From assembly GCA_964621395.1 (NCBI GenBank), contig CAZULS010000001.1, positions 135,920 through 199,919 on the forward strand: a DNA stretch of 64,000 nt, read 5' to 3'. A program made the position numbers and the translations under genes. The stretch comes from an uncultured Candidatus Saccharibacteria bacterium. Lineage in GTDB: Bacteria; Patescibacteriota; Minisyncoccia; Phycocordibacterales; JACNGX01. The notes under the pieces were generated by a model. It saw nothing but the letters and a program-made list of their open reading frames with translations. It searched no databases and was not told the DNA's origin. Positions 1 through 12,233 of the stretch are shown here, piece by piece. Numbering within the stretch: position 1 is the stretch's first letter; the number at the start of each line of letters is the position of its first letter.

Positions 1-178
1 CTGTTTTCTCTCTTTTGTTGTCAGTCCGTTTCTCCTCGAGAGAGAAAAAGAGGGGAGAGCGACCGAACTTCTTCCGGAAGAGCTCCAAACGAACATCGCC
101 CTAAGCTTTATTGTGTCATTTGTAGGATGGTGGAGCGCTGTGGTACTTTTGGTTATGTACATCTTTGGTTTTTAACCT

Positions 179-227
179 TGCGCGCACGAAAAAAGCAGCC
201 TTTTGGCTGCTTTTTTCGTGCGCGCAA
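179..227. terminator. 21-bp-stem perfect palindrome GCGCGCACGAAAAAAGCAGCC-TTTT-GGCTGCTTTTTTCGTGCGCGC; bidirectional rho-independent terminator
   Basis: Read directly: long GC-rich inverted repeat flanked by T/A runs immediately downstream of the minus-strand DUF378 ORF. Confidence 0.6.
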
Positions 228-232
228 CGCAA

Positions 233-454
233 TTACATCTGCATGGACGAACCAGCACCGTCTTTCTTGGAGAGCGCTACAACAATCATGTAAATTGCCG
301 CAAGCCCCACGATGATGTAGATAATGTCCGCAGCGACACCGCTTCCGAAGATTGCTGCCACGAGATCAAGATCAAACGCGCCGACAAGTCCCCAGTTAAT
401 GCCACCGATGACGGTAAGCACAAGAGCGATCCACTCCATGGCATTGCATTTCAT
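233..454 (-). CDS. Small membrane protein, DUF378-like (MKCNAMEWIALVLTVIGGINWGLVGAFDLDLVAAIFG...)
   Basis: C-terminal 73 aa of the 233..637 minus ORF match the conserved DUF378 pattern (IGGxNWGLVGxFxxDLVAAIFG, two TM helices). Start chosen at MKCNAM; the upstream part of the track ORF looks like read-through. Confidence 0.45.
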   Translation of the reverse strand: MKCNAMEWIALVLTVIGGINWGLVGAFDLDLVAAIFGSGVAADIIYIIVGLAAIYMIVVALSKKDGAGSSMQM

Positions 455-623
455 CATAGTGATATAAAACATGAAAACGAATAATGTTCGACCAACGTAC
501 AATCCCATTATACCAATATAAGACTCATATGACACGTAGGTGTGCATAACGAATATCTCCATACTCGTTTTTTTAACTGTTCTGGTGTAGAATACACCCA
601 TATGTATTATCTTTATTACCACT

Positions 624-1700
624 ATGATTGATATCACTTCTCTTACTCAATACTTTAGCCAGGGTTTTTGGCAATATGCTTGGGCGGGGAATACGCTTGG
701 CGAATATGTCATTGCCTGTATTGTCCTTGTCCTTGGGCTTATTGTGCTCAAATATGTGCAATGGTTTGTCTTGCGTATACTGAAGAAAGGAGCAAAGCAC
801 ACAAAGACAGACATCGATGACACGCTTGTCGATATTGTCGGCAGTATCAGACCACCCTTTTACTCTTTTCTTGCCTTGTATGTGGCCGTGCGTACACTCG
901 CGCTTTCAGATATCGTTGCACGTATCTTTACTGTCATTTTGATTGCGTGGATTGCCTATCAGGTGGTGCTTGCGCTTCAGATTCTGATTGATTATGTGAT
1001 TAAGAAAAAATTCGTTTCCGAAAGTGATGCGGGTGCGCAGGGCGCGGTATCGTTTATGAGCGGACTTTTCAAGGGGGTGCTCTGGGGCATTGCGCTGATT
1101 ATGGTGTTGGGGAATCTTGGTGTGGATGTGACCTCGCTCATCGCGGGCCTCGGTATTGGCGGTATTGCCATTGCATTTGCACTCCAGAATATTCTTTCCG
1201 ATCTCTTTAGCTCGTTCGTGATTCACTTTGACAAACCGTTTGTTATCGGTGATTTTATTATTGTCGGCGAACACATGGGCACGGTGGAGAAAATTGGCAT
1301 CAAAACAACACGCATCCGCGCGCTTCAGGGAGAAGAGATTGTGATTTCCAATCAGGAGCTCACATCCGCGCGCGTGCAGAATTTCAAAAAGATGGAGGAA
1401 CGACGCATTGTTTTTCATCTCGGTGTTACCTATGATACGGATCTGAAGGCGATGCAAGAGATCCCGGATATGGTGAAGAGTGTGATTGACCCTATTGAAG
1501 GCGCACGTTTTGATCGCTGTCATTTCCAAACATTTGCCGATTCAGCGCTTGTCTTTGAGACGGTGTATTATGTACATTCGGGAGATTATGCTCAATACAT
1601 GGACATTCAGCAGACTATGAACATGGCGATTTTGAAAAACTTTAATGATAAGGGAATTGATTTCGCCTTTCCGACACAGACGATTCATATTGAGAAGTAA
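624..1700 (+). CDS. mscS: Small-conductance mechanosensitive channel, MscS family
   Basis: 358 aa; N-terminal TM helices followed by the MscS beta-domain signature (GDFIIVGEHMGTVEKIGIKTTRIRALQGEEIVISNQEL); bidirectional terminator 1725-1775. Confidence 0.8.
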   Translation: MIDITSLTQYFSQGFWQYAWAGNTLGEYVIACIVLVLGLIVLKYVQWFVLRILKKGAKHTKTDIDDTLVDIVGSIRPPFYSFLALYVAVRTLALSDIVARIFTVILIAWIAYQVVLALQILIDYVIKKKFVSESDAGAQGAVSFMSGLFKGVLWGIALIMVLGNLGVDVTSLIAGLGIGGIAIAFALQNILSDLFSSFVIHFDKPFVIGDFIIVGEHMGTVEKIGIKTTRIRALQGEEIVISNQELTSARVQNFKKMEERRIVFHLGVTYDTDLKAMQEIPDMVKSVIDPIEGARFDRCHFQTFADSALVFETVYYVHSGDYAQYMDIQQTMNMAILKNFNDKGIDFAFPTQTIHIEK

Positions 1701-1778
1701 CGAGTTTCGAGACGGCGCGCTCACGCGCGCCGAGAAGAAAAAGCGGGGCGGCCTTTGGTCGCCCCGCTTTTTCCATAC

Positions 1779-2954
1779 CTACCCCTCAATCACATCAAGA
1801 AGCATGTCACGCAGTTCGGGAGCTAGATTTTCCATAAAGAAATCGGCACGTTCTTTGAGATTGCCGGAGAGATAGGTGGAAAGTGCCATGCCGGTATCGG
1901 TAAAGAGTGTGTGATTGATATGCAAAGGTGTGATGGCATTGAGCTCGCGTTCGGAAGTCGTGTCGCCTTCGGAGCTGGTGACCACAATGCCGGCAAGTGT
2001 GCCGGTTGTGATGTCTACAATACCGCCACCGGAAGATCCTTGCTGTGCGGCGATATTGCCCGACACGGCAAAGAGATCAGCCGTGTGTTCGCCGAATGTA
2101 TAGACATCCAACACATGAGTGACAGCGGTGACAGGCCAAAGCTCGCGACTCACGGCGGATCCGCTCAGAAATTCTGCCGGATAGCCGGCAACGAGCATGG
2201 GAAGCCCTTCGGGAATGTCGTCGTTTTTTGCTCGGAGGGAAAGAGCGGGGAAGGAAGAAGGCAGGGGATCATCGGTAATCGATTCGTTGATAAGAAGCAG
2301 GGCAACGTCATATTCACCCGTTCCCAGCGGTCTGTCTTGGACAATCGCCTCGGCGTTTCCGGCAATCCACGAAGAAGAAATAAAGAGCGGTACGGCATCG
2401 TAGGCACGCTCGGCAGGCGCTCCGGTGCGGACGATGCAATCCGTGTATCCGGTGCCGCCCTGTTCTTCTTCAAGGAGGAAATATTGAGCCACATGGGAAT
2501 TGGTAAGGACGATACCGCGAGAATCAATAATCATACCGCTTCCCGACGATGCGCTGATGCTGCTTCCGGTGTGGGTTGTGCAAAAGACGTTTACCAGAGC
2601 GGAACGCGCGGCGACATTGAGTACATCAGTGGGCTGGACATCCGGCGGTGGCGGAGTGCTTTCTTCCGGCTGTAATTGCTCATCTGTTGGGTCGGTGCTT
2701 GTGGCAGGCTCGGCGGCATGGGGAGTATCGTTTGCCGTATGCGGATGTTGTTGGGAGGGGGACTGCTGATATCGTTCGGAAGGAGACGGCGGTGTGTTGA
2801 GGGTGTGTTCGGAGCGTGGTGTTTCGGCTATGGGTCCTTTGGGAGGCGAGAAAGAATTGGTATCGGCAATACCGATAGATGCCAGAAGTTGCATTGTTGC
2901 GGCAATGACGATAACAAGAATTTCTTTTGCAATGTGGATAAGCTCTTCAAGCAT
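1779..2954 (-). CDS. Trypsin-like (S1 family) serine protease with N-terminal TM anchor and Pro/Ser/Thr-rich linker
   Basis: Catalytic triad context TNSHV ... YDVALL ... GSSGGGIV (GxSGG serine motif); N-terminal hydrophobic segment then low-complexity P/S/T-rich region. Confidence 0.7.
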   Translation of the reverse strand: MLEELIHIAKEILVIVIAATMQLLASIGIADTNSFSPPKGPIAETPRSEHTLNTPPSPSERYQQSPSQQHPHTANDTPHAAEPATSTDPTDEQLQPEESTPPPPDVQPTDVLNVAARSALVNVFCTTHTGSSISASSGSGMIIDSRGIVLTNSHVAQYFLLEEEQGGTGYTDCIVRTGAPAERAYDAVPLFISSSWIAGNAEAIVQDRPLGTGEYDVALLLINESITDDPLPSSFPALSLRAKNDDIPEGLPMLVAGYPAEFLSGSAVSRELWPVTAVTHVLDVYTFGEHTADLFAVSGNIAAQQGSSGGGIVDITTGTLAGIVVTSSEGDTTSERELNAITPLHINHTLFTDTGMALSTYLSGNLKERADFFMENLAPELRDMLLDVIEG

Positions 2955-3261
2955 GGCGCTATTATACGTTTTTTGCGTGAAATACGCGAATATTTGACAT
3001 ATTTATACATGCGTGATGTAGTCTTGACTTTTATTGAGGAGCGGTATAGAATGGGGGAGTAAATGTACAGCTTTCGGGCTGTCATTTTCATCAAAGGTCC
3101 CTTGGGCTTTTGCCCTCATATTTTTTGGCAGTAAGTATTTTAGGCTTACTTTATGGAAGATAATGTAATGAATCCGGTAGATGATCAGCAGAATGATGCT
3201 GCTCAGCCGGCAGAAGGAGAAACTCCTGAAGCTACTGAAGAGTCAGCTGAATAGTCTCCTC

Positions 3262-3298
3262 ACACAACCCGCCTCTGGCGGGTTGTGTGTTTTTTTGG
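3262..3298 (+). terminator. Rho-independent terminator CACACAACCCGCC-TCTG-GCGGGTTGTGTG + T7
   Basis: Perfect 13-bp stem followed by a T-run, immediately after a 33-aa acidic mini-ORF (3153..3254). Confidence 0.6.
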
Positions 3299-3451
3299 TA
3301 GGATAGTGCAACAAACGATAAACCCTAGAGCACGCAAGTGTGCTCGGGCGAAGCGATAAACGCGGCGGATGTCGCAAAGCGACATCCTCCGCGATGATAA
3401 ACTTTCTCTTCGTTGTCATTCCCGGCTTGAATGGGAATCCAAAGCCCTAAT

Positions 3452-3550
3452 CCAGCCCCACACTGATGTGTTTCAGGATAAAATAAACTGATCAGTAGAG
3501 ATACTACCGGATACAGAATTATGTCTCTGGACACATAAGTGTGGGGCTGG
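3452..3550. repeat. Family-E MITE-like element (TIR CCAGCCCCACAC ... GTGTGGGGCTGG), with a family-A GTCATTCC hairpin at 3414-3445
   Basis: Inverted termini read directly; related TIR-bounded copies at 16063-16168, 34975-35095, 49845-49965. Confidence 0.55.
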
Positions 3551-3591
3551 ACGGGCATGTCCTAAACCAGGCGTAGCCTGGTCGGACAAGA

Positions 3592-3662
3592 GCGGGTATA
3601 GTTTAGTGGTAGAATATCTGCCTTCCAAGCAGAGGACGGGAGTTCGATTCTCCCTACCCGCA
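3592..3662 (+). tRNA. tRNA-Gly (anticodon UCC)
   Basis: GCGGGTA acceptor stem pairs with TACCCGC; D-loop AGTTTAGTGGTAGAA; anticodon stem TCTGC/GCAGA with loop CTTCCAA giving anticodon TCC; T-arm GGGAGTTCGATTCTCCC; discriminator A; no encoded CCA. Confidence 0.9.
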
Positions 3663-4308
3663 CAGCCAAAGCGAACCGCCATGAAGGGGCGGTTTTCGCT
3701 TTGAGCTGTGCGGGTAGAATGCCACACCTCATACGCATATGGAGTTTTTGGAAGTATGGAATAATGCAAGAAAGTAAAGATGTGTGGGGACAATATCTCT
3801 TGTGAGGTGTGGCATGTGGAGAATCGAACCAAACACAACTTTCACTGATTATTTTGATTGGTTAATTAAATGTTAGAGATTTTTCTTAACGAGAAGTAGC
3901 TATTTTCGGTTATAAGTGAAAGTGGTGTTCGGCGCCCAAGAGTACTTAGCGGATTGCGAATACTTGGAGCAATACGCTTAGTAACTCTGGGACGATTCTC
4001 CCTACCCGCACCACTTCGCCGAGCACCACTTCCGAAAGGAAGTGGTGCTCGGCTTCGCGGCGTCCGTCCTGCATAGCTTTAGCGACGTAGGGCAAGCACC
4101 ACCAACAGCGTGTATATCATATAATCGCGAAGTGGCCCTGCAGAGCCTCGGCGACGTGGGGCATGTAAGACTGTGAGCCGCGCCTGCCTGCCGGCAGGCA
4201 GGTCCAGCAGCACTTTATAAAATACGAGCTCTCAGGCGAAGTATTTTACTTAGTAACTCTGGGACGATTCTCCCAAAATAAAAGCCGGCTTCTGCCGGCT
4301 TCTGCCCT

Positions 4309-4686
4309 CTATTTTCTGGGAGCAGGTATAGGGTACAAGGCTGCTAATTCGGGAGAAAATTGTGCTGACGAGACTGCCACCCAACCCCCCTCTTCAATAA
4401 TGAATCCAAGGATAGGTTTCGTATCGCCTTCTTTTCTGAATATTCCCACAGCCAAGTCACCGTCTCTCACATCTCCGCCTTGCCAGGCTCGTGTGAAGAA
4501 ACCCTCGAATTCTTTTTCGTAACCAAGCTCACATACTTTTTCCCATATAGACACGGCATGCCATCCGTGTATGTGGTAAGCTTCTGAGGGATTATTCAAA
4601 TCTCGGATAAATTTAACCCCTAAATGTGCGATGGCTAACATTTTTACTATCCTCCTAGATTGATTTTGTGTTTTATTATCCATCAT
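4309..4686 (-). CDS. Hypothetical protein (accessory islet next to tRNA-Gly)
   Basis: 125-aa ORF with no recognisable motif; start may be internal (MLAIAHLG). Confidence 0.3.
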   Translation of the reverse strand: MMDNKTQNQSRRIVKMLAIAHLGVKFIRDLNNPSEAYHIHGWHAVSIWEKVCELGYEKEFEGFFTRAWQGGDVRDGDLAVGIFRKEGDTKPILGFIIEEGGWVAVSSAQFSPELAALYPIPAPRK

Positions 4687-4698
4687 TTTTCCCCTTCC

Positions 4699-5070
4699 TT
4701 AATTTTTTACATATTTCCGTTCGTTCAGAAAATGGTTGGCCGCTGCCCCAATAAGCCAAATTGAGGGAAGTAATATTGCTGCAATGGTGGCAGTGAGAAT
4801 AGATACATAGGATTTCTCTGTAGTGGTTACAGTTATAAATATTATTCCAGACGCAACTATGCCCACATAGCTGGCATTCCTGAGTTGTTTTAAAGTTCCC
4901 GTTTTCATTTTGGGCATGAATACGAGCGAAAAGAGCATTGTGATGATATAGAGTATGATGATTTCCATTTTCCCTCCGTTTTTGTTCAAGTACAAGTTAC
5001 ATAAAGAAATATTTCCTGCCCGCATAATTGCACAAGTTTGACATCTGTTCAAAGAAGTGCTGCAAAACAT
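4699..5070 (-). CDS. Hypothetical small membrane protein
   Basis: 123-aa ORF; several hydrophobic helices (IIILYIITMLFSLVF, IVASGIIFITV, ILTATIAAILLPSIWLIGAAA); 13-bp gap to the upstream ORF. Confidence 0.3.
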   Translation of the reverse strand: MFCSTSLNRCQTCAIMRAGNISLCNLYLNKNGGKMEIIILYIITMLFSLVFMPKMKTGTLKQLRNASYVGIVASGIIFITVTTTEKSYVSILTATIAAILLPSIWLIGAAANHFLNERKYVKN

Positions 5071-5124
5071 TCATTTTATAAACAAATAGTTGAAAAATAG
5101 CACAAAGAGATGTATGGTTGAAAT

Positions 5125-5967
5125 ATGCTTTCATTCTATAAGGGAATTGAAAATGATATCATTGCTCATCTCACAGAAGGGCCGCTTCCGGCAAAAACAC
5201 TGGTGAAAACGATTGTCGCTGAGCGAGGAGTGACCGACCAGGGCGTGTATAAGGCGCTGAAATATCTTATCGACGGAGAGGTGGTGACGAAAGAAAAGCG
5301 GTCTGTTGGTTTATCGCATGCATGGGTGGAGCGCCTTGTTGCTTTTGCTGACGATGTGGCTCGAAAATATGAAATGAGTGACATGAACGATTTTCTCCGC
5401 CTCAACGACAAAGAGAAAGTATCATATACGTTTACTGAATATTTTAAATCCGATATCCATTGGGCACATATCTTTTTTCTCCTTGCCAAGCGGACTGATG
5501 CGCCGATTTTTCTCCTTTCTCCACACAATTGGTTTATTATTGCGCGTCCGGATACCGAGTCGGTTTTGTATGATTGGGCTAATCGTTCAAAACGGCATAT
5601 GTACACGCTCACAAAAGGTAATACCGCACTTGATCGTGCTGCACAAGCTACAATTGAAAGTGATTTTGTGCACTTTTATCACGATGAAGAGATGAGCACG
5701 CCGCTCAATCGCTTTGTAACAGTTATCGGTGATTTTATTTTTGAATTCATCATTCCGGAACGCATTGCCGACACAATGGAAGAATATTATGCAACATACA
5801 CCGAGTTTAATGAGGAAAGTATCGGTGCATTCCGCGCGCTCAGCGATACAAAGTGGCCGGCAAAATTTACCGTTGAAAAAAATGCGAAAAAAGCACTTAA
5901 ACTCCGCCGGCGCATAGCCAAAGATTTTTTCATTCCGGCAGACGTAAAGGAGAAGTGGCTGACCTGA
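5125..5967 (+). CDS. Hypothetical protein, possible N-terminal winged-helix domain
   Basis: 280-aa ORF; the N-terminal approx 70 aa have a wHTH-like pattern; no catalytic motif recognised. Confidence 0.3.
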   Translation: MLSFYKGIENDIIAHLTEGPLPAKTLVKTIVAERGVTDQGVYKALKYLIDGEVVTKEKRSVGLSHAWVERLVAFADDVARKYEMSDMNDFLRLNDKEKVSYTFTEYFKSDIHWAHIFFLLAKRTDAPIFLLSPHNWFIIARPDTESVLYDWANRSKRHMYTLTKGNTALDRAAQATIESDFVHFYHDEEMSTPLNRFVTVIGDFIFEFIIPERIADTMEEYYATYTEFNEESIGAFRALSDTKWPAKFTVEKNAKKALKLRRRIAKDFFIPADVKEKWLT

Positions 5968-6034
5968 GTATATATGTCAAGAAGTTATACACAGTGTGCT
6001 TGACTTTTTTACATAGTTCGCATAAAATGTCATT

Positions 6035-6742
6035 ATGACCAAGAACACACATAAAGAATTGATGTCCACTATCAAATCGTTGCGGACCGAGAAAGGATTC
6101 TCGCAGGAGCAGACAGCTTCTGCTATCGGCGTTTCGCGCCCGACCTATACAGCCATTGAAGCAGGTAAGCAAAAACTTGATGTTGAAGAGGCGAAAAAGC
6201 TCGCGGTGTTTTTAGGTATTGATGTTGAAGATATCGTGTATGAAGATGTGTCGAATTTGGAAAAGTATAAACACATGATTCTTGCATATCTTCGCGCAAA
6301 GGTGTCGGACGATGGAAAGGTGACAAAGACGAAACTTGCCAAACTCTTGTATCTGGCTGATTTTGCGTGGTATTACGATCACATGAAAAGTATGAGTGGT
6401 ATGCGATATCGTCGTTTACAGTATGGTCCGGTACCAGACATGTTTTTTCGCGCACTCGCGGAGCTTGAAGACAGTGGGAAGATTGTTGTGGAACGGAAAG
6501 ATATGGAGGAAAGAGAAATGTTTCTTATTAGCGAATCTGAGAGCAACAAGAACGATCCTCTTGAGAAGGTGGGAACTGATGAGGTTTCCCTTATTAAGAG
6601 CATCGCAAAAAAGTGGAAAGATAAAAAAACGCAAGATATTGTGACTTTCACACATAATCAATTGCCATATCGGATTTGTCGTGATAATGAGATTATCCCT
6701 TATGAGCTCATCACACAGGAGGATTCCGACCTGGTGTATTAG
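6035..6742 (+). CDS. Antitoxin candidate: N-terminal XRE-family HTH + C-terminal Panacea (DUF4065/SocA-like) domain
   Basis: HTH: LRTEKGFSQEQTASAIGVSRPTYTAIEAGKQKL. Panacea-like core: TKLAKLLYLADFAWYYDHMKSMSGMRYRRLQYGPVPDMFFRAL (KLLYLAD ... Y.YGPV pattern). Downstream ORF starts 4 nt after its stop. Confidence 0.55.
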   Translation: MTKNTHKELMSTIKSLRTEKGFSQEQTASAIGVSRPTYTAIEAGKQKLDVEEAKKLAVFLGIDVEDIVYEDVSNLEKYKHMILAYLRAKVSDDGKVTKTKLAKLLYLADFAWYYDHMKSMSGMRYRRLQYGPVPDMFFRALAELEDSGKIVVERKDMEEREMFLISESESNKNDPLEKVGTDEVSLIKSIAKKWKDKKTQDIVTFTHNQLPYRICRDNEIIPYELITQEDSDLVY

Positions 6743-6745
6743 GGT

Positions 6746-7150
6746 ATGCCAGGGACATGTTCTGTTACAATTGAATCTTTTGCGGAAAGTCATTATGTGA
6801 AGACGTTTGAAAAGAGGCACAAGTGGCACTGGGATGTAACTCGTCGCGCCATTATCGCCGAGCTTGAACGTATTGAAGCACTTCTTCTCACCGACAAGGC
6901 GGATTGTATTTGTGAGCAGGATGGTGTTGCCATTGTAAAAGTGGATTTCAAGGTGGCGGGAACAAAAGGGTCAGCAAAAAAGTCCGGTAACAGATGTATT
7001 GTTGCGTGGCATAAAGATAATGAAAAAGTCTCTATACTTTTGTTATACGGAAAGACAAATTTGCCAGGTAGAGGGAAAAATGAGACCGCGGTATGGAAAA
7101 AGATGGTGAGAGAGCAGTATCCCGAATATAGATATTTGCTAAAGAGCTAG
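6746..7150 (+). CDS. Toxin candidate partnered with the Panacea-domain antitoxin; weak RelE/ParE-superfamily-like C-terminus
   Basis: 134 aa; operonic with 6035..6742 (4-nt gap); C-terminal KSGNRCIVAWHKDNEKVSILLLYGK resembles the RelE/ParE beta-strand core (g.yR.iy.v ... v.il.i.h); otherwise unassigned. Confidence 0.35.
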   Translation: MPGTCSVTIESFAESHYVKTFEKRHKWHWDVTRRAIIAELERIEALLLTDKADCICEQDGVAIVKVDFKVAGTKGSAKKSGNRCIVAWHKDNEKVSILLLYGKTNLPGRGKNETAVWKKMVREQYPEYRYLLKS

Positions 7151-7282
7151 CACGCTTATTTTGCTTGCACCCGACCCGCAAATATGCTTAAATAGTGGGC
7201 ACAACGAAAGAAAGGGGATTTTGGCGTCTGGCTGGACTCTTTTTATTTTCTTTTTTATTTCTGACTTTTGATTTTCAGTCCT

Positions 7283-7372
7283 ATGGGAACTTCGTTAAAG
7301 AACAAACGCAAAAGTGTGAAGCGTCGTCGTCGCAAGAAAATGCGTCGTCAGAATCGCTTTAAGAACAAATAA
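7283..7372 (+). CDS. 29-aa highly basic peptide, possible bS22-like ribosomal protein (MGTSLKNKRKSVKRRRRKKMRRQNRFKNK)
   Basis: Not in ORF track (<60 aa). ATG 7283, TAA 7370-7372, immediately followed by terminator AAACCGCC-CTCGAG-GGCGGTTT + T-run (7375-7410). Composition and length resemble the ~30-aa actinobacterial/bacteroidete bS22. Confidence 0.35.
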   Translation: MGTSLKNKRKSVKRRRRKKMRRQNRFKNK

Positions 7373-7374
7373 CG

Positions 7375-7410
7375 CAAAACCGCCCTCGAGGCGGTTTTGC
7401 GTTATTTGTT
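7375..7410 (+). terminator. Rho-independent terminator after the basic mini-ORF
   Basis: AAACCGCCCTCGAGGCGGTTT hairpin + TTGCGTTATTTGTT. Confidence 0.6.
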
Positions 7411-7551
7411 CAGGAATATGAAAAACGAAATATGGAATATGGTGTACGGCGTAGCTTCGCTCTGTCGCACGCTCGAAACTCGAAACTTGACTCTCGAAAC
7501 TCAACGAAAAAACTCCGCGGTGCGGAGTTTTTTCGTAAGTGGGTGATGCGT

Positions 7552-7824
7552 TTATTTCACCGCATCCTTGAGGGCTTTCGCCGCACGGAACTTCGGTACG
7601 CGCTGCGCGGGAACCTGAACGGCTTCACCGGTGCGCGGATTGCGTGCCGTGCGTGCCGCACGCATCTTTGCCGAGAAGATGCCGAGACCCGCGATGGACA
7701 CTTCGTCGCCCGCCTTCAGCGTGTCAACGATTGCATCAAGCATTGCGTCTACGGCGCGTTCAGCGTCCGCTTTGGTGCTGCCGGTTTTTTCCGCAACAAC
7801 ATCAACGATAGCTGCTTTATTCAT
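7552..7824 (-). CDS. hup: HU family DNA-binding protein
   Basis: 90 aa from MNKAAIVDVVAEKTGSTKADAERAVDAMLDAIV ... GLGIFSAKMRAARTARNPRTGEAVQVPAQRVPKFRAAKALKDAV; canonical HU/IHF arm motif RNPRTGE. The track ORF 7552..7896 has a 24-aa N-terminal over-extension. Confidence 0.85.
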   Translation of the reverse strand: MNKAAIVDVVAEKTGSTKADAERAVDAMLDAIVDTLKAGDEVSIAGLGIFSAKMRAARTARNPRTGEAVQVPAQRVPKFRAAKALKDAVK

Positions 7825-8380
7825 GGGATGTATTTCAAGAGAATATCTCTTGTACGTTAGTCGGGTAAAATCGACCTCGTCGAGTATATTTTCCAATCAT
7901 CCTTGCGGACGTTATTGAGAAATAGACTCCTTTCAATCCCGGAAACGGGTTCGCTTCCTATAAAACATTATAAAACAATGCTTTTTACGGGGACAATCTT
8001 GACATGTGAATAAGATGTTGCATGAGTTTTGGGGACAGTGTTGAAAATAAAGGATAAATTGCAAATAATTCGTTTTTTGTGTTTACGCAACGTATATTTT
8101 AGGCAGAAATTGTCCACCACACACCACTTTTTATGAGCGAGCGTCTTGCGGTAGTGTATTTCACGAAACGAGCATCTTTTGTATCGTTGGTTTGCGCATT
8201 GTGAAAAGATGGTGTGCGGTACGCGCTAAAACAAAAACGCCCTGACGGGTCTTTGAAAAGGAGGCATACCACACACCACTTTATATTGGACAACGTGAGA
8301 AGGTTTTTCGTGTATATGTAACATAAGTATTTTTATGGTTATTTGAGTGTATTAAAAGATGGTGTGCGGTACGCGCGATA

Positions 8381-8412
8381 AAGAAAAGCCCTTTCGGGCT
8401 TTTCTTTATCGC
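8381..8412. terminator. 19-bp-stem perfect palindrome GCGCGATAAAGAAAAGCCC-TTTC-GGGCTTTTCTTTATCGCGC, bidirectional terminator downstream of rny
   Basis: Read directly; the stop of rny (8406) is embedded in the stem flank. Confidence 0.6.
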
Positions 8413-9968
8413 GCGTACTCTATAACCTTCGTCTCTCGTATCACATGAACCTTAATTTCTCCCGGATATTTGAGCTCTGTCTCTATCTGACGAGCGATTT
8501 TTTGTGCCAAATCTTTTGCCTGCATATCAGTAATTTTCTCCGGCGACACGAAAATGCGGATTTCCCGCCCCGCTTGGAGGGCAAAACATTTCTCCACGCC
8601 TTCAAACGACAAGGTAATCTTCTCCAAATCTTCCAAACGCTTCAAATATTGCTCAATGGAATCGCGCCGTGCGCCCGGACGTCCGCCTGAAATCGCGTCA
8701 GCCGTTTGCACAATAATAGACTCAAGTGTTTCATACGGATATTCTTCATGATGCGACTGCATTGCCTTCACGATTGCCTCATCAGCACCAAATTTCTGCA
8801 AAATACGGCGACCGATTTCCACGTGGGTGCCCTGCACCTCATGATCCACCGCCTTTCCGATATCGTGGAGAAGTGCGCCTGCTTTGGCAATAGGCACGCT
8901 TGCCCCGAGTTCCTCAGCAATCATGCCGGCAATATGCGCCATTTCCACGGAATGCTGAAGCACATTCTGCCCGTAGCTGGTGCGGAAGTGTAAACGCCCC
9001 AAAATGGCAATAATGCGCGGATCAAGATTGAGAATACCGCATTCATATGCCGCCTGCTCACCCTTATCTTTAATGATTTTACTGATTTCGTCTTTTGCCT
9101 TGACGATATAATCTTCAATCTTCGCCGGCTGGATGCGTCCGTCTAGAATGAGATTTTCAAGCGCAACGCGAGCAATCTGACGGCGAACCGGATCAAAGGA
9201 AGAAATGGTAATAGCGCCGGGCGTGTCATCAACGATCACATCCACGCCGGCGGCGCGCTCGAATGCTTTGATGTTGCGTCCTTCTTTTCCGATAATCTTT
9301 CCCTTTATTTCATCCGAGGGAAGGGTAATCGTTGTGGAGGTGATATCGGCATTGGTTGCATTGGCATAGCGCTGCACCGCCGTTGTGAGGATCTCTTGTG
9401 CGCGGCGGTCGAGTTTTTCGGTATTGGCGTTTTCAAGCTTCTGAATACGCACAAGCAAATCTTCTTCATATTGCGCCTCAGCACGCTTATACAATTCCTC
9501 GCGAGCTTCCTCGGAGGAAAGATTGCCAACACGCTCCAATTCTTTTTGCTGCTCTTCTACTGATTTCTCCACTGACTCGCGAATTCCCTTCACTTCCTCG
9601 ATGCGATGTTTCACTTCTTCAATCTGCTTGTCGATATCAAGCTGACGCTTATCCAGGAAGTCTTCTTTTTTCACCAAACGCTGTTCAAGTTCTTTGGCGT
9701 CTGCCTTCTTCTCCTTCGCCTCCTTCTCAGCGTCTCTTAACACGTGCTCCGCTTTTTTCTCCGCTTCGTGTGTGATTTTTGTTGCCGCTTCTTCCGCCGA
9801 AAGACGCATGCGTTTGATCTCAAGCTCCATGCTGCCCTTTTTCCCGAGGGAGATGATGAAACGCAGGAAATACCCGAGGGCGACTCCGACGAGCACGGCG
9901 CCTCCGGCTATCAAAAACATAAAAAGAGTAAAGCTCATACCTGCATGTTCCTCCGAACACGACAACAC
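8406..9968 (-). CDS. rny: Ribonuclease Y
   Basis: 520 aa; N-terminal TM, coiled-coil, KH domain (IIGKEGRNIKAFE) and HD domain (LLHDIGKAVDHE). Confidence 0.9.
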   Translation of the reverse strand: MLSCSEEHAGMSFTLFMFLIAGGAVLVGVALGYFLRFIISLGKKGSMELEIKRMRLSAEEAATKITHEAEKKAEHVLRDAEKEAKEKKADAKELEQRLVKKEDFLDKRQLDIDKQIEEVKHRIEEVKGIRESVEKSVEEQQKELERVGNLSSEEAREELYKRAEAQYEEDLLVRIQKLENANTEKLDRRAQEILTTAVQRYANATNADITSTTITLPSDEIKGKIIGKEGRNIKAFERAAGVDVIVDDTPGAITISSFDPVRRQIARVALENLILDGRIQPAKIEDYIVKAKDEISKIIKDKGEQAAYECGILNLDPRIIAILGRLHFRTSYGQNVLQHSVEMAHIAGMIAEELGASVPIAKAGALLHDIGKAVDHEVQGTHVEIGRRILQKFGADEAIVKAMQSHHEEYPYETLESIIVQTADAISGGRPGARRDSIEQYLKRLEDLEKITLSFEGVEKCFALQAGREIRIFVSPEKITDMQAKDLAQKIARQIETELKYPGEIKVHVIRETKVIEYAR

Positions 9969-10096
9969 AGGGCTTTCATTCAGGCGTACGACAAACTATG
10001 CGCGCATGGGTGTTATGCGACGCGAAAAGAAAAGACGAAAAGCGTTGAAACGAAAATCCAAAATCATACGTGTTCGTAATGGAAAGATAATTTCGA

Positions 10097-10285
10097 GAGC
10101 CTGTTCACGGTTCTCATGTCGTGCGTTAATGCATCATATACCGAGCGAAAATCGTGAAAAACGGTGATAGAGTACTATCGTACTTTGAGACGTTTTGAGC
10201 GATTTGCAGCCGGTATATGGTGCATTAAGCCGACAAGGATATATTGTTCTTCGTTTAATTCCGTTGAGAACTGTGAACAGGCTCT
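10097..10285. mobile_element. Family-C MITE (189 bp) with 19-bp TIRs GAGCCTGTTCACGGTTCTC / GAGAACTGTGAACAGGCTC
   Basis: Inverted termini read directly; near-identical internal sequence to the copy at 17903-18090 (opposite orientation) and the partial copy at 52690-52812. Confidence 0.7.
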
Positions 10286-10525
10286 AGGCCACACTGCCTA
10301 TCATGTATGCCGTGTAAGACAGTGTGGAGGACTAATAACCTATACCCTGAGTGTACTATGGAATGGCTAAAATGGCAAATATCTTGGGAGCTTATAGCTG
10401 GTAGCTTGTAGCTTATAGAAAAAAGGCGCGCTGACGCGCGCCTCTCTGGGGATATCCAAGACAATTGACCGTAAGCGCTTGTCGTGCTATGAATAATGCA
10501 GTTGTACTTGCATAACTAAAATTCA

Positions 10526-11329
10526 GTGAAAATGAAAAAAGATGATCGGTTACCGGGAAGGTTTACATTGTGCCGCTTCAGAGTTCTTGTATTTCTCGAG
10601 AATCATGGAGCAGGTTGGATACCTCTCCTTTTTGAGAAACCACAAGGGGCCATTGTATTTGGATATATTCCAGGCGCCTGTATTCTTGGTATTATAGGCG
10701 CTTGGAGTCTGTGGGCTCTTTTGGGTACGTTGGTTGCTGCAGGGGCAGGTATGTTTTGGAGTATCCATTTTCTGTACCAAAGACATCTTCTTTGGTATAA
10801 AAAATATCAGGAAGAATGGGCGCGTCGCTATGATATGATTCTCAGGGCGATTTCTCCGGAAGTTTATGATTCTTTTCAGGAAGATGGGGAGATACCCAAG
10901 GATTCGTTTTGTGCAATGAACATTCTTGCCAACTTGAAACCGAGACTATCAGCGGAGCTTTTGGGAGACTATGATGATTCAACAAAAATCAGGCTCTTGG
11001 AATCGTTTCAGAATGAAATAGGACGCACATATTTCAGACTCCCTCTTTTATTTATCGGATACGATGAAATAGTCAAAGTTATTGATTCGTTTACGAGTAG
11101 GAAGGTTTTTCTTAAACCAGAGGACTATGTCGGTGGAGATACCTCTCTTATTGATGCGATTTTAAAATGCCAAGATTACATGTTGGAGAAGAATGATGAG
11201 ACAATCAGTCAGATAAGAGAAACTTTTTCAAAGCATAAGGAAAACGATATCGATCAAATAGGTGTCATTAAAGCGTACTTTTCTGAAAGGGAGACAGCTC
11301 GTAGAAGACATGTGGAACAAGCCGGGTAA
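10526..11329 (+). CDS. Hypothetical membrane protein
   Basis: 267-aa ORF; two N-terminal hydrophobic helices (GAIVFGYIPGACILGIIGAWSLWALLGTLVAAGAGMFW); no recognised domain. Confidence 0.35.
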   Translation: MKMKKDDRLPGRFTLCRFRVLVFLENHGAGWIPLLFEKPQGAIVFGYIPGACILGIIGAWSLWALLGTLVAAGAGMFWSIHFLYQRHLLWYKKYQEEWARRYDMILRAISPEVYDSFQEDGEIPKDSFCAMNILANLKPRLSAELLGDYDDSTKIRLLESFQNEIGRTYFRLPLLFIGYDEIVKVIDSFTSRKVFLKPEDYVGGDTSLIDAILKCQDYMLEKNDETISQIRETFSKHKENDIDQIGVIKAYFSERETARRRHVEQAG

Positions 11330-11390
11330 TTCCGGCTTTTTTTGTGTCCTTTCTTTTCAAAGTCTTTTCATATATACTGTCCGTATCGGT

Positions 11391-11594
11391 ATGTATGAGA
11401 AGCTGAAGAATTATGCGACGAGGATTGATGCCGAGGCGGACGGCGCAGTGCTGAAAGTGCACGGTGTTCCCTACATATTGTCATCCGACGATGCCGGTGG
11501 CATGCGCCCCGATGTTGGGATGTCAACGGGAGGCGTGTGGCTGTCTGTTGATGAAAAAGACATCGACACGGCACGAACCATTCTCAATGTATAA
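11391..11594 (+). CDS. Small DUF2007-like protein
   Basis: 67 aa from MYEKLKNYATRIDAEADGAVLKVHGVPYILSSDDAGGMRPDVGMSTGGVWLSVDEKDIDTARTIL; resembles the DUF2007 fold pattern; a -10-like TATATACT lies 10 nt upstream. Confidence 0.35.
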   Translation: MYEKLKNYATRIDAEADGAVLKVHGVPYILSSDDAGGMRPDVGMSTGGVWLSVDEKDIDTARTILNV

Positions 11595-11636
11595 TTTTTT
11601 GTCTATTAATTTCCTAATTTTTTAATCTCCTAACCT

Positions 11637-12233
11637 ATGCTTATTCCCACAGTTATCGAAAAATCACAATTTGGTGAGCGCGCGTATGATATTTATTCGC
11701 GTTTGCTTAAGGAGCGTATTATCTTTTTGGCAGGACCGATTGATGATGCTGTTGCCAATACGGTGATTGCCCAGCTCCTGTTTCTTGAGTCTGAAGATCC
11801 AAAGAAAGACATCAGCTTGTATATCAATTCGCCGGGCGGGTATGTGCATGGAGGGTTGGCGATTTATGATACGATGCAGCACATTAAGCCGGCTGTCTCT
11901 ACGATTTGTGTCGGTATGGCCGCTTCTATGGCATCGGTGATTCTCTCAGGGGGCGAGAAAGGGAAGCGATTTGTATTGCCGCGCGCGGAAGTGATGATTC
12001 ATCAGCCGCTTGGTGGCGTGGAAGGACAGGCGAGTGATATTGAAATCTCCGCAAAGCATATTTTGAAACAGCGCGCGCTTCTGAATAAAGAGCTTGCGAA
12101 AAATACCGGCCAGACATTGGCGAAAATCGAAAAAGACGTAGAACGCGATTTCTTCATGGATGCCGAAGAAGCGAAGAAGTACGGCATTGTGGACGCGATT
12201 TTGAAAGAGAAGAATGGGAAGAAAGAACGATAA
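11637..12233 (+). CDS. clpP: ATP-dependent Clp protease proteolytic subunit
   Basis: 198 aa; [17 protein letters not shown], catalytic Ser context GMAASMAS, His in MIHQP; tandem TAATCTCCTAA motif immediately upstream of the ATG. Confidence 0.95.

Follow-up and report, generated by a model that had tools for sequence, protein, structure and literature searches.

Genomic islands and prophages that integrate into tRNA genes with a tyrosine integrase, at sites of the T-loop class, use the segment that starts in the T-loop and ends one base past the discriminator. The T-loop-to-end segment is duplicated, the proximal copy keeps the tRNA intact, and both the islands and their integrase-less derivatives (cis-mobilisable elements, tandem accretion) form serial arrays in which older copies decay, at loci that are variable. 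A second kind of system comprises the attC sites of integrons and the attP(+) hairpin of CTX used by Xer, where structure is conserved over sequence, folding is strand-biased, the stem imitates a double-stranded target, a variable tip is tolerated, and the units occur in arrays and carry no recombinase gene. MITEs, REPINs and the Rickettsia palindromic elements are short, non-coding and multicopy, with inverted-repeat ends, long hairpins and a patchy distribution. Finally, the tRNA-like domain of tmRNA and YrlA (bacterial Y-RNA-like) mimic the acceptor and T-stem of a tRNA.

Very little is known about mobile DNA and non-coding RNA in the Patescibacteria, whose genomes are tiny. The window analysed here, a stretch of 64 kb in total, is core chromosome of such a bacterium, one of the Paceibacteria close to Candidatus Yonathbacteria, and identical Logan contigs confirm its assembly. 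Its repeats of a tRNA-Gly end bound a short non-coding element that forms one folded unit, the intact copy of which lies at 3664-4011.

Repeats of the tRNA-Gly end and the unit that they bound

The tRNA-Gly(TCC) gene does not encode CCA, just the first C after discriminator A3662. Its 19-nt end CGATTCTCCCTACCCGCAC (3645-3663) recurs identically at 3993-4011, both copies spanning the T-loop to the base after the discriminator, and a 26-nt exact repeat, CTTAGTAACTCTGGGACGATTCTCCC, is found at 3977-4002 and 4249-4274. Even with 3 mismatches allowed, neither sequence matches elsewhere in the 64 kb, shuffles and chance leading us to expect about 0, and no tRNA-end copy lies beyond 4274 in this stretch. 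A sequence-only reading of this DNA had already seen the tRNA end recur, as 18 nt at 3992-4009, and had described a longer direct repeat of 28 nt at 3975-4002 and 4245-4272; the recurrence was read correctly, and the longer repeat is real but somewhat shorter and displaced, coordinates in that reading being 1-4 nt off. The inverted repeat that it placed at the tRNA acceptor (3650-3718) is present as CTACCCGCACAGC / GCTGTGCGGGTAG at 3654-3666 / 3705-3717, and its strong hairpins (4019-4053 and 4183-4203) correspond to a perfect 16-bp stem in 4018-4053 and to the palindrome CCTGCCTGCCGGCAGGCAGG at 4183-4202. What it missed is GGAGAATCGAAC at 3818-3829, the complement of T-loop and T-stem. Joined together, GCTGTGCGGGTAG and GGAGAATCGAAC are the exact reverse complement of positions 3642-3666 of the tRNA, which means that an inverted copy of the tRNA end is split in two by a 100-nt hairpin (3718-3817) with a 13-bp closing stem.

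The intact unit (Table 1) consists, in this order, of a terminator-like hairpin, a hairpin-interrupted 5' arm, the internal domains P2 and P3, and a 3' arm. The 5' arm, which complements the 3' strand of the tRNA acceptor together with the T-stem and T-loop, pairs with the 3' arm, which copies the tRNA end. The minimum-energy fold of the element has -118.9 kcal/mol, with z = -8.2. Palindromes of the H1 type through the tRNA end are also present in L006, L022, L026, L073 and L197, and the CUUAG/CUUAG motif of P3 is common to related members, including L083, L086, L166, L175 and L183. Where the window has its 100-nt arm-interrupting hairpin, other members have a stem of about 9 bp, most often with a CTGC loop.

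Table 1. Features at and downstream of tRNA-Gly in the window (positions count from the first base of the window)
Feature	Positions	Strand	Basis
tRNA-Gly(TCC)	3592-3663	+	ARAGORN; Rfam tRNA 74.5 bits (tools place end at 3662/3)
S1, the tRNA-Gly gene's own 3' end, T-loop C56 to C74; reference copy of the repeat	3645-3663	+	
Long hairpin H1: acceptor 3' strand and CAGC trailer (3654-3666) paired with 3705-3717	3654-3717	+	inverted repeat; sequence
Terminator-like hairpin enclosed by H1	3667-3703	+	
5' arm, part a: complements acceptor 3' strand and S1's own trailer	3705-3717	+	
Arm-interrupting 100-nt hairpin; 13-bp stem 3719-3731 / 3803-3815	3718-3817	+	
5' arm, part b, GGAGAATCGAAC: complements T-loop and T-stem 3' strand, pairs with 3993-4001	3818-3829	+	inverted repeats; R1 alignment
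Internal domain P2: long hairpin, arms 3829-3849 / 3912-3932	3829-3932	+	inverted repeat; folds
Internal domain P3: CUUAG/CUUAG internal motif; 3' strand is left part of 26-nt repeat	3935-3991	+	
S2, the 3' arm: perfect second copy of tRNA 3' end, end of intact element	3993-4011	+	
Decayed second unit; holds hairpin 4018-4053 and palindrome 4183-4202	4012-4274	+	
Intrinsic-terminator-like hairpin GCCGGC-N4-GCCGGC and T run, for minus-strand ORF 4309-4686	4275-4299	-	read from sequence

Only the last 26 nt of the second unit (4249-4274) still match the first, and the sequence diverges afterwards. They comprise the 3' strand of P3 followed by 10 nt from the start of the tRNA-end copy (4265-4274). 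The 26-nt repeat is the P3 3' strand and 3'-arm start of two tandem units, the first intact and the second decayed. The minus-strand terminator-like hairpin at 4275-4299 directly adjoins this truncated third tRNA-end copy. The repeats enclose 329 and 253 nt, in which there are no credible ORFs, and covariance model R1 (see below) yields no second full match on the window.

Three further observations concern the vicinity of the tRNA. In SRR8146440, the Logan contigs (L002, L003) break exactly at the tRNA 3' end, one stopping at 3663 and the next beginning at 3635, while the assembly of a sister sample runs straight through it; the break could reflect a second context for the 29-mer 3635-3663, or a population variant. 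Upstream of the tRNA, the 300 nt at 3300-3591 are rich in structure as well: a hairpin occupies 3356-3398, an inverted repeat of 21 nt lies at 3451-3471 / 3531-3551, and Rfam has no match to this stretch. An inverted tRNA pseudogene on the minus strand was considered and rejected, as the homology ends at position 53.

The interval between tRNA-Gly and HU in related genomes

Upstream of tRNA-Gly the window encodes an MscS channel and a trypsin-like protease; downstream of it lie about 650 nt of non-coding DNA, and then come orf125, orf123, orf280, the HTH-Panacea antitoxin and the partner gene, a small basic ORF of 29 aa, HU, RNase Y and ClpP. About 45 species genomes conserve the order ClpP, RNase Y, HU, tRNA-Gly(TCC), protease, with a gap between HU and the tRNA that ranges from 59 nt to 5.8 kb (44 species). 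From the tRNA to the small ORF the distance is 138-150 nt in L018 and L006, 1.57 kb in L004, the closest relative (RNase Y match 79%), and 3.62 kb in the window. The short distance in L018 and L006 means that a near-uninterrupted junction exists and that the window carries extra DNA. Neither L018 nor L006 has the element and L004 retains just a fragment, the 5' half; when the window and L004 are aligned downstream of the tRNA, only tRNA-derived pieces can be aligned. The sequence-only reading had proposed to look in related genomes for indel polymorphism at this junction, and the comparison shows it: nearly empty in L018 and L006 against some 3.6 kb in the window, the locus is polymorphic for indels among relatives and is not a fixed, identical arrangement.

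Such a pattern could be expected from classical integrase scars, left by gene islands or prophages in tRNA-Gly, with the downstream 3.5 kb or so representing a decayed island. The direct repeats do begin in the T-loop and end after the discriminator, the insert is flanked by them (3645-3663 is identical to 3993-4011, with a partial copy at 4265-4274) and is absent from L018 and L006 and reduced to its 5' fragment in L004, and the interval is a hotspot of gene content in which L004 lacks orf125, orf123 and the toxin-antitoxin pair. Moreover, locus L090, described below, shows that a gene cassette can insert into such a copy. We nevertheless consider this explanation quite improbable, since no gene lies inside the repeats, no copy lies distal to the genes, and no integrase was found in the ORFs scanned and the families listed. 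The DNA between the repeats belongs to a conserved structured family and is not a remnant; orf280 is syntenic, with a 70%-identical homologue in the same place in L004; and the gap genes of relatives are mostly ordinary (TrmB-like regulators, dehydrogenases, alanine racemase). Neither Phage_integrase nor any other recombinase family was found in the 20 window ORFs of 215-405 aa scanned or in the genes at 4.3-7.2 kb, which agrees with the sequence-only reading that no integrase is visible, and at other loci the top families listed for 57 + 86 ORFs 3' of the tRNA include no integrase. Of the integration scars that this reading proposed, what stands is that they are true duplicates of the tRNA 3' end, reaching from the T-loop to past the discriminator, and that they are serial; what would have been inserted is a non-coding element and not islands. 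The decayed gene island that it envisaged is not supported, given 329 + 253 nt of enclosed non-coding DNA, no copy beyond 4274, and the synteny of orf280.

One candidate for a distal attachment site deserves mention. Near the position expected for it, CCCGACCCGCAA at 7168-7181 agrees with the tRNA tail CCCTACCCGCAC in 10/12 bases, with an estimated chance probability of about 0.1. The match is probably due to chance, because it sits in the spacer of a promoter that is conserved in L004, where these bases differ.

The HTH-Panacea antitoxin and its 134-aa partner (6035-7150) are missing in L004, where the homologue of orf280 abuts the promoter of the small ORF; the Panacea pair is therefore a separate indel, unbounded by tRNA-end copies. 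The small ORF itself, a Lys/Arg-rich frame of 29 aa (MGTSLKNKRKSVKRRRRKKMRRQNRFKNK, 7284-7373, plus strand), is conserved between tRNA-Gly and HU in L004, L006 and L018, and is preceded by a promoter-like CTTGCA-N17-TGCTTAAAT at about 7165-7200. Its product presumably resembles the tiny ribosomal protein bS22, and gene callers likely miss an ORF of this kind.

A family of folded units at tRNA 3' ends

The element follows tRNA genes in at least 15 related Paceibacteria species and at least 59 metagenome loci. The tRNAs concerned include those for Gly, Glu, Pro, Arg, Leu, Cys, Ala and Lys, and in every case it is the local tRNA that the arms copy. The layout seen in the window is found 3' of tRNA-Gly(TCC) in L031, L083, L028, L022, L041, L063, L048, L043, L068, L026 and others; in at least 10 species, an inverted T-loop/T-stem copy lies 50-80 nt downstream and a direct copy of the 3' end 120-330 nt downstream, both tracking each species' own tRNA sequence. 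At the same loci, units also follow Gly(GCC), Pro, Arg and Leu tRNAs, copying the end of each one.

A scan of metagenomes for arm pairs returned at least 59 distinct cases in which a tRNA on the same strand precedes the pair by 22-313 nt (for Gly, Glu, Leu, Cys, Ala, Lys and Arg among the matches listed), and pattern matches without a tRNA are either chance or cut off at contig ends. Among the matches listed, the 10-12 nt beyond the forced pattern match the local tRNA perfectly in 32 of the 56 scored; the part of the 5' arm that complements the acceptor is present in 21/56 members, with no preference for those with an intact distal tail; and an arm-interrupting hairpin at the junction of acceptor and T-stem occurs in 34/59, built from 29 different stem sequences and most often closed by a CTGC loop. 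A terminator-like hairpin often precedes the 5' arm, between tRNA and unit, so that tRNA end, trailer and arm join in a single long palindrome. A simple scan for terminators near the units is unreliable, because the conserved hairpin is itself called as a terminator. In viral contigs the 26-nt repeat has 0 matches, and the two matches to the arm pattern are both unrelated (one a tRNA pair, one chance).

Minimum-energy folds recover one architecture across members, and two interior types were aligned, type A with 16 sequences and type B with 33. The type A interior has P2, a GUACUG junction and a P3 with a UGUAA loop, and type B combines a P2 that has a GGAG/GAG internal loop with a GGG junction and a P3 of greater length. 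Standard pairs fill 95.7% of cells in type A (0/500 shuffles as high, partners slid along the alignment reaching at most 55%), where 12 of the 13 P2/P3 pairs have changed on both sides, and 90.6% in type B (again 0/500 shuffles as high, slid partners at most 45%), where one G-U pair is conserved. The tRNA-sense strand is the one that folds more stably in 48 of 50 elements. Model R1 (type B) has a single match in the 64 kb of the window, at 3818-4001, over the full model length (E of about 0.005), a weak match of 20 bits to which the arms contribute much of the score. Position and arms of the window element fit the type B family; its P2 is much longer than in the model and the GGAG/GAG motif is not evident, and the fit to type B is thus partial. 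Full-length R1/R2 matches in 1.19 Mb of relatives adjoin tRNA 3' ends, with L064:11931 as the sole exception.

These data bear on the view that there is no element at all, but only by-products of local mutation devoid of function and mobility, in which template switching extends a palindrome at the terminator and slippage does the rest. Long perfect palindromes through tRNA end and trailer do exist without the rest of the unit, as in L006, and the duplicated block in L035 includes the terminator. Local mutation can explain neither internal domains that covary across dozens of species and at least eight tRNA types nor near-identical interiors at different tRNAs in one genome, which makes it highly improbable as an account of the family.

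The folding data are more favourable to a resident gene for a putative small RNA, coupled to the tRNA and transcribed with it or just after it. Its arms would match the tRNA through selection or local sequence correction and not through insertion, and its internal domains would carry the function, for example protein binding, or a role as decoy or sensor for the tRNA 3' half. Since the closing helix imitates acceptor and T stems, the enzymes that process tRNA ends could release or stabilise such an RNA. Strong covariation in P2, P3 and the arm-interrupting hairpin speaks for it, as do the preference for the tRNA-sense strand, the conserved G-U pair, loops typical of RNA (UUCG and GNRA) and the placement of the interrupting hairpin at the point from which the D and anticodon arms of a tRNA emerge. 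The two Gly elements of L028 have a common derived mismatch in the arm, yet each fits its own tRNA, and the type A interior occurs elsewhere without tRNA arms, like an independent RNA domain. On the other hand, a resident gene sits uneasily with a patchy presence at the orthologous site, with different interior types by species, and with a distal tail that is decayed in about a quarter of members (among the matches listed) and drifts between close relatives while the tRNA stays fixed. The low frequency of the acceptor complement, and its lack of any link to an intact distal tail (again among the matches listed), and the terminator-like hairpin that often stands between tRNA and unit argue in the same direction, and we hold a resident small RNA gene to be unlikely.

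The type A interior without arms was seen at L064:11931-12009(+), L009:3566-3636(+), L058:2375-2445(-), L037:4510-4559(-) and L041:14245-14301(-). It consists of P2, a GUACAG junction and a P3 whose loop is CUGUAAG, and ahead of it stand GGGGTGAGA, a hairpin and GC|AAGAC. It has no Rfam match and may be an independent RNA motif.

The element family is absent from Rfam 15 and from the literature searched, in which we found no description of such an element. Searches of Rfam 15 returned nothing beyond tRNA at E values up to 1-5 (window 1-12000, L031, L028), and no match at gathering score in five further loci. Known ribozyme, riboswitch and tRNA-like families were discarded for want of an Rfam match, and the hammerhead ribozyme because its junction order, read by eye, does not fit. 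Group I introns do occur in tRNA genes of Patescibacteria, in the anticodon loop and at a much larger size (PMC13011429), and were rejected because of that position and size.

Possible insertion at tRNA ends and its relation to known systems

The reading that we prefer, and to which we would give about an even chance, is the serial insertion of a miniature structured non-coding element at the 3' end of tRNA-Gly, which left one intact and one decayed copy in the window. Several findings are consistent with it. Interior types differ between species at the orthologous site, and one interior type recurs at different tRNAs within a genome: in L031 the Gly and Pro tRNAs are followed by an identical P2, and recurrence within a genome is also seen in L028 and L063. 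Tandem or nested copies are found in L153, L022, L090 and the window. The distal copy drifts, by one base between L027 and L035 with the tRNA unchanged, and likewise differs between L116 and L099; among the matches listed, about 13/56 distal tails are decayed.

Elsewhere, tRNA-end copies act as recombination junctions (L090; L027 compared with L035; L099 compared with L116). The genomes of L027 and L035, which are 85% identical, align up to and including the final base of the distal copy, beyond which they have nothing in common as far as the HU terminator. In L090 (3178-4260), tRNA-Glu is followed by two elements and then by an ORF of 103 aa that has its own promoter. Complementary hybrid halves of a tRNA-end copy, TTCGATTCTCCGTGGG|CCTATT and AAATCGCTCTCCGTGGGATCAC, lie on either side of the ORF and resemble attL and attR, as if a small gene cassette had entered the copy. 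We did not recover any free or circular form, nor an empty/filled pair of near-identical strains, and the case for insertion is thus made by comparison at the species level only. No recombinase, transposase or reverse transcriptase was found in the ORFs scanned in the window or among the commonest families listed for genes near members.

Three further points weigh against this reading. One is the weak match of the window element to R1, given above. Replacement of a tRNA 3' end also needs a matching copy that is carried beforehand, yet the same interior adjoins Gly, Pro, Glu and Leu tRNAs with arms matched to each. Furthermore, an expressed RNA that serves the host would account no less well for the covariation, the strand bias and the GNRA- and UUCG-like loops.

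If insertion is nonetheless what happens, entry might proceed by recombination at the segment of the tRNA gene that runs from T-loop to acceptor. The element's own copy of this segment would complete the tRNA, and the original end, displaced downstream, would become the distal copy. In a single strand, of DNA or RNA, arm and complement may fold into a helix that imitates the double-stranded end of the tRNA gene, comparable to the attachment sites of integron cassettes (attC) and to CTX phage attP, on which a recombinase supplied in trans could act. Loops of the GCGAAGC kind form very stable DNA mini-hairpins, and a folded DNA strand is therefore conceivable. Repeated insertion with decay of older copies would give the series in the window, and arms that match new tRNAs could arise, by one possible route, through template-switch correction of two overlapping near-palindromes.

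Extended to the group as a whole, this leads to the suggestion, tentative and rather doubtful at present, that in Patescibacteria tRNA 3' ends provide a landing platform for integrase-less mini-elements defined by structure, and occasionally for small gene cassettes, by way of a folded single-strand site. If true, it would amount to an integron- or CTX-like system of single-strand recombination aimed at tRNA genes; the alternative, equally new, would be a family of small RNAs that mimic tRNA ends and are made from the units. In either case we are dealing with a widespread element that is found next to tRNA genes, reproduces the 3' ends of these genes and flags a hotspot where genes are gained and lost. 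This leads us to question which recombination or RNA machinery these reduced cells possess, and whether tRNA ends serve as a general platform without integrases encoded by the elements. With the two covariance models, complete genomes can be surveyed directly. Genome annotation is liable to be misled by the element, since its partial copies of tRNAs resemble integration scars or pseudo-tRNAs.

With the tRNA-like domain of tmRNA and with YrlA the element shares mimicry of acceptor and T-stem and a 3' end identical to that of a tRNA. Unlike in these RNAs, its T-loop is base-paired, the neighbouring tRNA is copied exactly and the acceptor complement is often absent; Rfam models of families of the tmRNA and YrlA type do not match it. 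The traits given above for MITEs, REPINs and Rickettsia palindromic elements all recur here, but the ends copy the target, insertion would be confined to the 3' ends of tRNAs, the duplication is 19-21 nt long and the internal stems covary. Where a MITE has terminal repeats of its own, a short duplication and dispersed sites, we find arms that are those of the local tRNA and full-length copies that, but for one, lie at tRNA 3' ends.

The likeness to integron attC and the CTX attP(+) hairpin extends to every property listed for them at the outset. The target in our case, however, is the end of a tRNA gene and not attI or dif, the attC R-box GTTRRRY is absent, and most arrays have no ORFs between units. 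Read directly, the arms GGAGAATCGAA / (TT)CGATTCTCC do not conform to the attC boxes (RYYYAAC / GTTRRRY), since GTTCGAT does not fit; of attC-like single-strand recombination, the strand bias of folding is what our data show. Closest in the duplication itself are the tRNA-integrating islands and prophages and their integrase-less derivatives, with which the element has in common the T-loop-to-end duplication, the intact tRNA formed by the proximal copy, the serial arrays, the decay of older copies and the variable locus. It differs from them in that the inserts are non-coding and 100-350 nt long, with no integrase found in the approximately 100 loci examined, in that the same interior stands beside many different tRNAs, and in that it carries an inverted copy of the attachment segment together with conserved folded domains.
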